Positions 10,104 through 11,329 of a stretch of 64,000 nucleotides of DNA are shown piece after piece. How positions within the stretch are numbered: the stretch's first letter is position 1; each line of letters begins with the position of its first letter. A model generated the notes under the pieces. That model was not told where the DNA came from and searched no databases. It saw only the letters and a program-made list of their open reading frames with translations. The translations under genes were made by a program, and so were the position numbers. This DNA comes from Puniceicoccales bacterium. Lineage in GTDB: Bacteria; Verrucomicrobiota; Verrucomicrobiia; Opitutales; JAIRKQ01. The DNA is taken from positions 2,302-66,301 of the forward strand of contig JAIRKQ010000025.1 of assembly GCA_031260055.1 (NCBI GenBank), written 5' to 3'.

Positions 10104-10193
10104 TAGTCTTCGGTATGTGTTTTTAATAAGATTATCAATCTTTTCTTTACAGTTTATGGCCTAATTTTTAAAATTAAGCGATAGGAGTTGTTA

Positions 10194-10700
10194 ATGGGGG
10201 CATACCACAAAGTTTTAGATCGTTACCTGCAACTTGCGGGAACCAGGATAGGAAGTAAGTTATTTCTTGATAAAAATGGACTTTGTGTCCTTCGGAAAGA
10301 GAATGGACAGAGAGAATATGTGGTTGAGCTACCTAAGAATAGCGAAGTTGTTTATCTTTATTCACCGATTTGCACGGTTCCATATGGATGTAGTGAAGAA
10401 TTTTTTGAAAAAGTCTTGGAACTAAATCTATGTGGAATCACGTACAATCAGGCAACTTTTGGGCTAGACGCTAAGACACAAAATATCGTTCTATCCTATA
10501 CTCGATCCATGGAGGCACTCGACGAAGTAGCTTTTGCGAACATTTTAAGTAACTTCATGAAGACAGCTGATAGAGCCGAAAGAGACTTGGTAAAAATCGT
10601 AAGAGAGTTGATAGATAAAACATCATTGTCAGAAGATGATATTGATATGGAAACGAAAACACATCGCACCATATCTAACAATGGTAAATTGAAAGTATAA
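10194..10700 (+). CDS. CesT/SycE-like type III secretion chaperone fold protein (the related YbjN family is not excluded)
   Basis: About 168 aa. The pattern LDKNGLCVLR...EYVVELPKNSEVVYLYSPI...FFEKVLELNL...ATFGLDAKTQNIVLSY...LDEVAFANILSNFMKTA matches the class I chaperone layout. AGGAG lies 6 nt upstream of ATG 10194. Confidence 0.55.
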   Translation: MGAYHKVLDRYLQLAGTRIGSKLFLDKNGLCVLRKENGQREYVVELPKNSEVVYLYSPICTVPYGCSEEFFEKVLELNLCGITYNQATFGLDAKTQNIVLSYTRSMEALDEVAFANILSNFMKTADRAERDLVKIVRELIDKTSLSEDDIDMETKTHRTISNNGKLKV

Positions 10701-10702
10701 TT

Positions 10703-11329
10703 ATGAATAATTTCGCCCTCGATATTAATATTAGTGAATTAAGTAAAGCAAGTAGCGCCGAGAGGTCTACGAGGCCTGAGGTAGCCCCAATAGGCCTATC
10801 CTTCAGTACAGTGGCTAGTCTTTTTGCGGACAGTAAGGCGCCGCCATCTCCCATGGAATCTGGTAATTTTGTTGATGCGAACGTGGCAGTAACCCAAGCC
10901 CGGACCAACGATTTACCCGACATGGTAAGAGATGTGCAAGAAAGACTGGATCAATTGAGGCAAACTCCGGATGATGAATGGGCAAGGATAAAGGAAGAAC
11001 TTCGAGCTGTTTTTGTCATGCTCAATGATCTCGATGGGGATGGTATTCCGGACGACTATGACAAACATCCAGGAGAAACCGTTGCGAATGTTGCTGCTAG
11101 GATAAACAAAATCGGGAAATATACCGTTACCGATGACAATAAGATGAAAATATTTTCAACGCTCAAAACTATGGTACAATCCTTAGACAGCCTATTAAAT
11201 AAAATTTCAGCCATGGCGGCGGCGGCTTCATCATCTTTCAAACCAATGAACGATACATCGGCATCGGATAGGTCGGATGGGGAAGAAAGTCTTTTTTCAT
11301 TAAAAAAAGTAGACAAAGAGCATAAATAG
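10703..11329 (+). CDS. hypothetical protein, candidate chaperone cargo, with one thrombospondin type-3-like Ca-binding motif
   Basis: Starts 2 nt after the stop of the chaperone-like gene. The N-terminus is Ser/Ala/Pro-rich with no signal peptide. DLDGDGIPDDYDKHP (nt 11027-11071) fits DxDxDGxxDxxDxxP. The C-terminus is Ser/Ala-rich and acidic. Confidence 0.5.
   Translation: MNNFALDINISELSKASSAERSTRPEVAPIGLSFSTVASLFADSKAPPSPMESGNFVDANVAVTQARTNDLPDMVRDVQERLDQLRQTPDDEWARIKEELRAVFVMLNDLDGDGIPDDYDKHPGETVANVAARINKIGKYTVTDDNKMKIFSTLKTMVQSLDSLLNKISAMAAAASSSFKPMNDTSASDRSDGEESLFSLKKVDKEHK

Follow-up and report, generated by a model that had tools for sequence, protein, structure and literature searches.

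A CesT-family type III secretion chaperone gene and its adjoining candidate cargo gene in a Puniceicoccales bacterium

Two short open reading frames (ORFs) lie almost end to end among the housekeeping genes of a 64,000-nucleotide stretch of DNA from a Puniceicoccales metagenome-assembled genome (MAG), namely positions 2,302 to 66,301 of contig JAIRKQ010000025.1, hereafter called the window. The first, ORF1 (cesT), very probably encodes a class I type III secretion (T3S) chaperone of the CesT family, and the second, ORF2 (orf2), encodes an uncharacterised protein that is a candidate cargo of that chaperone. Here we describe the pair, its conservation in related MAGs and the T3S system (T3SS) genes of the lineage, and we weigh the possible roles of the two proteins.

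The features of the locus are collected in Table 1. A mechanical ORF call gives ORF1 its longest frame from a TTG (10188-10700), and the likely start is the ATG at 10194, which has AGGAG 5 nt upstream; the resulting product of 168 amino acids (aa) is the same, residue for residue, as NCBI protein MDR0742387.1. The stop codon of ORF1 (TAA, 10698-10700) is followed by 'TT' and then by the ATG of ORF2 at 10703. Because the spacer is so short and ORF2 is preceded by only a weak Shine-Dalgarno sequence (GAAAG, 9-13 nt away), translation of the two is likely coupled. The first-pass annotation of the window had described an ORF of about 168 aa with a good Shine-Dalgarno sequence and a 208-aa ORF two nucleotides past its stop, and both descriptions agree with the sequence. 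Both ORFs are real genes, since each has orthologues and a ratio of nonsynonymous to synonymous substitution rates (dN/dS) below 1 in five pairwise comparisons. The divergent intergenic region between radC and ORF1 is 90 nt long, and the number of promoter-like sites in it is not above shuffle expectation; no terminator-like site occurs within 9900-12100.

Table 1. Features of the ORF1-ORF2 locus, in window positions except for the mini-ORFs, which are given in the positions of their own loci
Feature	Positions	Strand	Remarks
radC (RadC-like JAB)	9408..10103	-	Pfam PF04002, E 2.1e-33; divergent; conserved in all relatives
Promoter-like site TTTACA-17-TAAAAT	10146..10174	+	10/12 consensus matches; consensus match only
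Shine-Dalgarno sequence AGGAG	10184..10188	+	Read from the sequence; 5 nt 5' of the ORF1 ATG
ORF1, 168 aa	10194..10700	+	Very probable class I (CesT-family) T3S chaperone; isoelectric point 5.8
Gene junction TAA-TT-ATG	10698..10705	+	2-nt spacer; read from the sequence
ORF2, 208 aa	10703..11329	+	Acidic (isoelectric point 4.8); uncharacterised family; candidate T3S cargo of ORF1
IGLSFSTVASLFADSKAPPSPMES, ORF2 residues 30-53	10790..10861	+	Conserved island; candidate chaperone-binding segment
DLDGDGIPDDYDKHP, ORF2 residues 109-123	11027..11071	+	DxDxDG-type calcium-binding-loop motif with thrombospondin type 3 repeat spacing
GETVANVAARINKIGKY ... SLDSLLNKISAM, ORF2 residues 124-176	11072..11230	+	Most conserved part; predicted helical
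ORF2 residues 193-208	11279..11326	+	Acidic run, [N/S/K/L][P/L]F, basic KKVDKEHK tail
DJ-1/PfpI-family gene	11347..11889	+	Pfam PF01965, E 1.8e-36; 17 nt downstream of ORF2
Mini-ORF, 53-69 aa	L005 10516-10725; L006 10520-10681		Between cesT and the ORF2 homologue

The identification of ORF1 as a class I CesT-family chaperone, which we regard as highly probable, is based on sequence family and predicted fold. Pfam family CesT (PF05932) matches residues 16-127 over profile positions 7-117 of 119; the score is 57.8 bits and the gathering cut-off 22. All 30 homologues carry the same domain and come from MAGs labelled 'Puniceicoccales bacterium' or from unnamed metagenome contigs, and NCBI names ORF1 and its homologues 'CesT family type III secretion system chaperone'. 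Sequence searches of the PDB with ORF1, by single-sequence phmmer and by family profile, gave only noise, and a fold search was therefore needed to place the protein. An AlphaFold2 model built on 29 homologues (predicted local distance difference test score, pLDDT, 84.6; predicted template modelling score, pTM, 0.75) places helices (H) and strands (E) at H3-19, E30-34, E41-45, E52-61, H67-83, E88-92, E97-105 and H111-143, which is the a-b-b-b-a-b-b-a topology of class I chaperones plus an extra C-terminal helix; this helix and the tail beyond the core fold are conserved. In a Foldseek search of the PDB, ranks 1-14 are all T3S chaperones at E 3e-9 to 1e-6, under the names ExsC, SicP, SrcA/STM2138, CesT, SchA and SycN/YscB. 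ExsC is the best match (E 3e-9, template modelling (TM) score 0.82-0.85, 22% identity), and identity to the solved chaperones is 10-23%. The class I assignment had first been proposed from the layout of the sequence, and the CesT score, the model topology and the fold matches all bear it out. Tblastn further located homologues of 25-31% identity in unrelated T3SS loci, at most about 7 kb from sctR; one of these homologues sits directly after a 2027-aa protein.

The product of ORF2 has no match above cut-off in Pfam or NCBIfam (ROS_MUCR, CUPID and sll1863 all stay below theirs), and nothing significant was found for it in the PDB by sequence or profile. Its AlphaFold2 model is poor (pLDDT 49.6) and the Foldseek matches of that model, all at E>0.6, are meaningless; residues 1-67 have no secondary structure in this low-confidence model, and helices lie within residues 68-175. 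Close homologues number only 13, all from Puniceicoccales and all 'hypothetical'. Searching 1.84 billion representatives with the family profile brought in about 20 more proteins, 115-250 aa long, along with large repeat proteins that carry TSP_3, FG-GAP or Excalibur and are matched through the DxDxDG segment only.

That segment, DLDGDGIPDDYDKHP, is the only match to D.DGDG[IVL][PV]D..D in a six-frame translation of the window. It has the pattern D-x-D-x-D-G-[IV]-P-D-x-x-D-x-x-P, in which acidic residues at +3 and +6 come after the DxDxDG core; TSP_3, Excalibur and FG-GAP are all calcium-loop families of the DxDxDG type. Having the features of that motif class, the segment is a candidate Ca2+-binding loop. 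Residues D109, D111, G112, D113, I115, P116, D117, D120, K121 and P123 are invariant in the close homologues. Across the family, D-x-DGDG-[IVL]-[PV]-D-x-x-DK and, after the loop, 'T[VI]A.VAA...K[IL]G[KR][YF]' are essentially invariant, and all remote homologues keep the motif. The first-pass annotation had called this a thrombospondin type 3 (TSP3)-like motif, which stands as to the single copy and its spacing; assignment of a TSP3 domain was rejected. Pfam TSP_3 (PF02412) has no match in ORF2 at E<=1, the motif occurs once, and the protein contains no cysteine, so that the likeness is one of calcium-loop motif and not of membership. ORF2 also differs from thrombospondin type 3 repeats in having H in place of the C of 'DKCP', and from TSP_3 proteins in that the motif is embedded in a helical protein without an export signal.

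Other segments of note lie on either side of the loop motif. Within the variable N-terminal half, residues 30-53 (IGLSFSTVASLFADSKAPPSPMES) form an island with a mean majority fraction of 0.74, against 0.58-0.67 in the flanking segments, and with the pattern S-x-STVASL...PP-x-S-[IM]-E-S, in which T36 and V37 are invariant and S33, P47, P48 and E52 nearly so. The same motif is found again in remote homologues, and the mini-ORFs of L005 and L006 have it too. Substrates of class I chaperones are usually bound in an N-terminal region such as this one, and the conserved island would be the most likely chaperone contact of ORF2. Residues 124-176 reach a mean majority fraction of 0.86-0.89, with helices at 127-136 and 144-175 in the low-confidence model. 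The C-terminal tail is Ser-rich and acidic, as had been noted before, and contains a triplet that reads NPF in 8 of the 13 close homologues; in the window copy it is SLF. In eukaryotes, NPF is a ligand motif of EH domains; that the NPF-like tail of this family is an EH-domain ligand is speculative.

The arrangement of the two genes is conserved. The block in which a divergent radC is followed by cesT, orf2 and the DJ-1 gene is present in 9 of the 9 loci recovered (those listed being the window, its twin in Logan, L018, L019, L020, L025 and L029 (species-level), L005, L006 and L002), with chaperone identities to the window of 78-87% in L018, L019, L020, L025 and L029, 62-66% in L005 and L006, and 49% in L002. 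Each locus has a single copy of the DGDG motif, invariably in the gene next to cesT or in the one that follows a mini-ORF bearing its N-terminal motif. Where readable, the spacer from cesT to the next ORF is 1-6 nt (L002, L018, L019, L020 and L029; to the mini-ORF in L005 and L006). In L002 glgA and M29 are absent around the pair, and the adjacency of cesT and orf2 is kept. The chaperone gene is thus adjacent to, and co-conserved with, one candidate substrate gene, which is the class IA arrangement. The mini-ORFs of L005 and L006 consist of the N-terminal motif segment only (L006 SSVATYLNGENPPYPMDS; L005 GLVASVFAGREPSAPMDS). They amount to a second copy of a chaperone-binding-like module and call to mind ExsE and other small secreted ligands.

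The two genes evolve at very different rates. ORF2 is 47-67% identical to its orthologues, against 78-95% for glgA, radC, cesT, DJ-1 and M29. By the Nei-Gojobori method, with the window compared to five relatives, dN/dS is 0.05-0.14 for cesT, 0.07-0.17 for glgA, radC and DJ-1, and 0.34-0.57 for ORF2, whose N-terminal half evolves fastest. The constraint on cesT is that of a housekeeping gene. ORF2 evolves 3-5 times faster, under pressure that is relaxed or diversifying; secreted proteins that face a host commonly evolve in this way. Together with this rate, the invariable adjacency to the chaperone gene, the predicted disorder of the N-terminus and the lack of an export signal (no signal peptide or transmembrane segment, with a maximum Kyte-Doolittle value of 0.98 over a 19-residue window) are cargo-like traits.

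Sequence evidence from relatives shows that the lineage encodes an injectisome-type T3SS with genes scattered round the chromosome, and where T3SS genes are scattered a stand-alone chaperone-cargo pair is expected. On the same contig as the pair, 7-8 kb downstream of it, L005 and L006 encode SctQ (FliMN_C/SepQ_C) and SctR (FliP-family). The 217-aa SctR of L006 has no signal extension, scores 272.6 with the injectisome model TIGR01102 (cut-off 208.6) against 189 with the fliP model TIGR01103 (cut-off 217.45), and finds its best PDB match in the injectisome protein SpaP. The L002 pair (CAZALH010000001.1) and an SctR (CAZALH010000003.1) belong to one assembly, CAZALH01. In four further MAGs, with chaperones 87-88% identical to that of the window, the accession numbers of chaperone and SctR are 151-537 apart, and from this adjacency we infer that both come from the same submission or genome. 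NCBI gives the name SctR to more than 25 proteins of Puniceicoccales MAGs. The first-pass annotation had held that the absence of a T3SS from the whole genome would speak against a chaperone-effector pair; in the lineage, SctQ and SctR are present in L005 and L006, and SctR in five further relatives. It had also reported no apparatus genes in the window, which is correct for the ORFs covered: 57 in the window were compared with Pfam, and ten of these with NCBIfam too.

In Puniceicoccales and other Verrucomicrobiota relatives, sctQ-sctR forms an isolated two-gene island among housekeeping genes (L005 17576-19817; L006 16424-18931; L010 3-1212; L012 8269-10654; L014 7656-10651; L095 157-2548). 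Where the flank is on the contig, the island is preceded by a conserved 237-253-aa ORF without a Pfam match, and L012 has an extra 100-aa ORF between the two; sctS and sctT do not follow sctQ-sctR in these islands. The closed 878-kb genome CP095464.1 has the same layout.

The likely habitat of these bacteria can be deduced from accession records. The accessions of related MAGs (JAIRJQ-JAITXW; isolates such as Ncb351_bin8, Kf353_bin47 and Gx481_bin23) span a range that belongs to MAGs of 48 termite-gut metagenomes (PRJNA732531; mBio 2024, PMC11257099). That study describes the related MAGs only as putative endosymbionts of flagellates; their genomes are reduced, and the intranuclear 'Ca. Nucleococcus' is among their relatives. 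It also reports a nucleotide transporter (NTT) in related Opitutales (PMC11257099), and the word 'secretion' is absent from its text. The twin of the window in Logan is a 9.5-kb contig of run SRR14710918, numerically near runs SRR14710901, SRR14710907 and SRR14710909, which hold contigs of termite-gut MAGs, and from these neighbouring run numbers we infer the same termite-gut origin for the window lineage.

We therefore put forward, with moderate confidence in the proposed chain as a whole, that the pair is a class IA-style chaperone-effector module situated among housekeeping genes. The genes would be co-transcribed from the radC-ORF1 intergenic region, with coupled translation. A dimer of ORF1 would bind the disordered N-terminal part of ORF2, most likely at residues 30-53, so that ORF2 stays unfolded and fit for secretion, and would pass it on to the sorting platform and ATPase of a T3SS whose genes lie in another part of the genome. 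The destination of injected ORF2 would be the inside of a eukaryotic cell; this host is probably a termite-gut flagellate, since the relatives are termite-gut MAGs described as putative flagellate endosymbionts. There the conserved C-terminal helical domain of ORF2, organised round the single DxDxDG Ca2+ loop, would act on a host target. A remote chaperone-effector module was also one of the two explanations first offered for this locus, the other being a YbjN-type pair, and the cargo role fits the adjacency, the disorder and the rate of evolution.

Several observations weigh against this proposal. The apparatus proteins seen in relatives are SctQ and SctR, and MDR0742387, the chaperone of the window's own MAG, has no near neighbour in number among the 36 NCBI SctR accessions listed. 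An unbinned SctR contig that might have been assigned to the window genome was rejected, since it comes from run SRR14710907 and not from SRR14710918. The wider order glgA-radC-cesT-orf2-DJ-1-M29 is conserved as well. Lastly, the Ser-rich N-terminus of ORF2 is not conserved. Ser makes up 20% of residues 2-26 in the window copy, the second-highest value of 57 window ORFs, whereas the N-terminal 25 residues of the homologues contain 0-6 Ser and up to 7 acidic residues, many of these N-termini being acidic. The earlier description of the N-terminus as signal-less and rich in Ser, Ala and Pro thus holds for the window copy, and as regards composition not for the family; a conserved Ser-rich T3S-signal composition was rejected on this evidence.

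A more specific version of the chaperone-effector proposal, which we offer tentatively and think rather doubtful, would make ORF2 the first conserved T3S effector family of verrucomicrobial 'Nucleococcus-cluster'-like flagellate endosymbionts, and a calcium-switched one. ORF2 would be held unfolded by its chaperone, would fold round the DxDxDG loop after injection, and would then engage host machinery, possibly via its acidic NPF-like tail. As a variant held no more firmly, the pair and the mini-ORF of the sister lineages could form an ExsC/ExsE-like secretion-sensing switch. If this version were true, a second lineage of the Planctomycetes-Verrucomicrobia-Chlamydiae (PVC) superphylum, independent of Chlamydiae, would be living in eukaryotic cells with a scattered-gene injectisome and an NTT.

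Among the alternatives to a chaperone-effector module, we first consider that ORF1 is a true chaperone and ORF2 not its cargo, in which case ORF2 would be an unrelated small calcium-binding neighbour and ORF1 a class IB chaperone of multiple cargoes. The adjacency of cesT and orf2 could be plain synteny because the order from glgA to M29 is syntenic across the clade, L091, another Puniceicoccales CesT homologue, has no effector-like neighbour, and the N-terminal composition of the ORF2 family varies. We nevertheless find this alternative unlikely. Spacing of 1-6 nt is retained across the clade, the adjacency persists in L002 where glgA and M29 are gone, and the N-terminal motif is duplicated beside the chaperone gene in L005 and L006. 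With a rate several-fold above that of every neighbour, ORF2 would make an uncommon housekeeping protein, and it lacks a signal for export by another route.

We also give little credence to an ExsC/ExsE-like pair, in which ORF2 would be a secreted or sequestered regulatory ligand of the chaperone and not a host-acting effector. Export of ORF2 would then free ORF1 for another partner and so couple secretion to gene expression, and the mini-ORF of L005 and L006 could have the same role. Such a role would suit the rank of ExsC, in its complex with ExsE, as the best structural match of ORF1, the extra conserved C-terminal helix and tail of ORF1, the mini-ORFs, which recall the 81-aa ExsE, and the position of a highly constrained chaperone gene among housekeeping genes. 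It is less easily reconciled with the strongly conserved C-terminal domain of the 208-aa ORF2, which a mere chaperone ligand would not need. SicP, SrcA and CesT score almost as well as ExsC, and no ExsD- or ExsA-type partner is seen near the pair in L002, L005 or L006.

It is quite improbable, in our view, that the pair is a relic of a T3SS lost from the window genome, persisting either with no role in secretion or with a new one in the cytoplasm. The listed SctR accessions and the window itself offer no apparatus gene of this genome, and the region past M29, which holds sctQ-sctR in L005 and L006, is occupied in the window by tRNA-Thr and tuf. Against a relic, both genes are intact, with dN/dS below 1 in comparisons that include the window lineage, and the four closest relatives tested have SctR. 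In those four relatives sctQ-sctR lies on short or separate contigs, so that the absence of sct genes from an incomplete MAG is to be expected.

The remaining alternative left by the first-pass annotation, a YbjN-type pair unrelated to T3S, is very improbable and was rejected for ORF1: the general fold is common to ORF1 and YbjN proteins, and the latter do turn up among the Foldseek matches of ORF1, yet only at ranks 47 and 49 and first at E 2e-3, as against 3e-9 for the T3S chaperones, while Pfam YbjN has no match at E<=1, CesT is above its cut-off and the lineage has an injectisome. The family (E. coli YbjN, Erwinia AmyR) is distantly related to ORF1 in fold, with much weaker scores, and YbjN proteins are without T3SS context.

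The class IA pairs with which the chaperone-effector module can be compared are CesT-Tir of enteropathogenic Escherichia coli, SicP-SptP of Salmonella, SycE-YopE of Yersinia and SchA-HopA1 of Pseudomonas syringae. ORF1 resembles their chaperones in its Pfam family, its small size and acidity and its fold, and the pair resembles them in that the chaperone gene adjoins the gene of a signal-peptide-less protein with a disordered N-terminus. Unlike these examples, the pair lies between radC and DJ-1 and not in a T3SS island or on a plasmid, and ORF1 departs from the solved class IA chaperones in its extra C-terminal helix and its low identity. ORF2 is unrelated to any known effector in Pfam, PDB sequence and fold searches. 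In Pseudomonas aeruginosa, exsC lies directly upstream of the gene for its secreted ligand; ORF2 is considerably longer than ExsE (208 against 81 aa).

The genomic setting recalls that of Chlamydiae, in which the class I chaperones Slc1/CT043, Mcsc/CT260 and Scc1/Scc4 stand alone among housekeeping genes and the T3SS clusters are scattered. The two groups share membership of the PVC superphylum, scattered T3SS genes and a (here putatively) intracellular lifestyle. No chlamydial chaperone is among the Foldseek matches listed for ORF1, and the likeness drawn here is one of genomic context and lifestyle. The chaperone itself is routine, having already been annotated automatically by NCBI; what is new is its link to a candidate effector family in a little-studied, T3SS-bearing and probably protist-associated lineage. 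In the literature collection searched, no paper connects Puniceicoccales with type III secretion. ORF2 is the best candidate effector in this group of Puniceicoccales/Opitutales MAGs, and if the pair works as proposed, it would provide a two-gene handle on how verrucomicrobial symbionts manipulate protist hosts, as well as a comparison point, beside Chlamydiae, for T3SS-based intracellular life in the PVC superphylum.

The genes that flank the pair are themselves well conserved. Upstream, radC forms the conserved boundary of the cesT-orf2 block. Downstream, the DJ-1/PfpI-family gene is probably co-transcribed with ORF2, given the 17-nt distance and the lack of a terminator-like site between them, and its adjacency is kept in all relatives, including L002 with its 49% identical chaperone. 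Its position may be plain synteny, and it has no other connection with the pair. Beyond these, Pfam and NCBIfam identify housekeeping genes throughout the window (dnaE, glgA, radC, tuf, secE-nusG-rplKAJL-rpoBC, suf, valS and lpxB), which has a GC content of about 41%.

Type IV pilus-like genes are the sole secretion-type genes among the scanned ORFs of the window. Two minus-strand regions, 39905-41243 and 32161-33762, hold pseudopilin and PilM-like genes of such a system. A prepilin N-terminal methylation motif is present in three small ORFs in a row, and the product of the PilM-like gene shows distant similarity to the Akkermansia Amuc_1101 family. A secretin encoded 7 kb from the pair in L002 was considered as SctC and rejected as evidence of a T3SS, being an Amuc_1098-like type IV pilus secretin. 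The lineage retains a type IV pilus-like system.

Other window ORFs without a recognised family could be of interest as secreted proteins. The hypothetical protein encoded at 6832-7635 (+), 3 kb upstream of the chaperone gene, could be a second effector. It has 267 aa if read from a TTG and 256 aa by the call in L001, has no match in Pfam, NCBIfam or PDB sequences and evolves fast; at 54-57% identity it is tandemly duplicated in L019 (3306-3962 and 4481-5125), and for the other relatives no homologue was found in the DNA retrieved around the pair. Its conserved motifs 'G[DE]GH-x-NCGFN' and 'HFDAAPH' resemble a Cys box and a His box as in OTU-like cysteine proteases or deubiquitinases, an idea to which searches by PDB sequence and profile lent no support. 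Further ORFs of 120-526 aa have no Pfam match and, among those checked, no NCBIfam match either (58926-63156 (-), 31256-32164 (-), 35641-36738 (+), 37886-39908 (+) and 50248-51523 (-)). Four of them follow one another on the minus strand (58.9-63.2 kb), and all are additional effector candidates if the symbiont bears a T3SS. Two tandem 121-aa ORFs at 18-383 and 465-830 (+) are likewise without a Pfam match, and the second has the most Ser-rich N-terminus of the window (32% Ser in residues 2-26), which is also Lys-rich.

Finally, rpoB is split in the window into two overlapping ORFs, 17951-21166 and 21163-21735, inside Rpb2 domain 6. The sequence at the break (21125-21166) reads ATACTAATCCTCTCGGCG, and one extra A (CTAAATCCT) would restore the conserved protein sequence, so that the split most likely reflects a 1-nt deletion through assembly or sequencing error rather than a real division of an essential gene.

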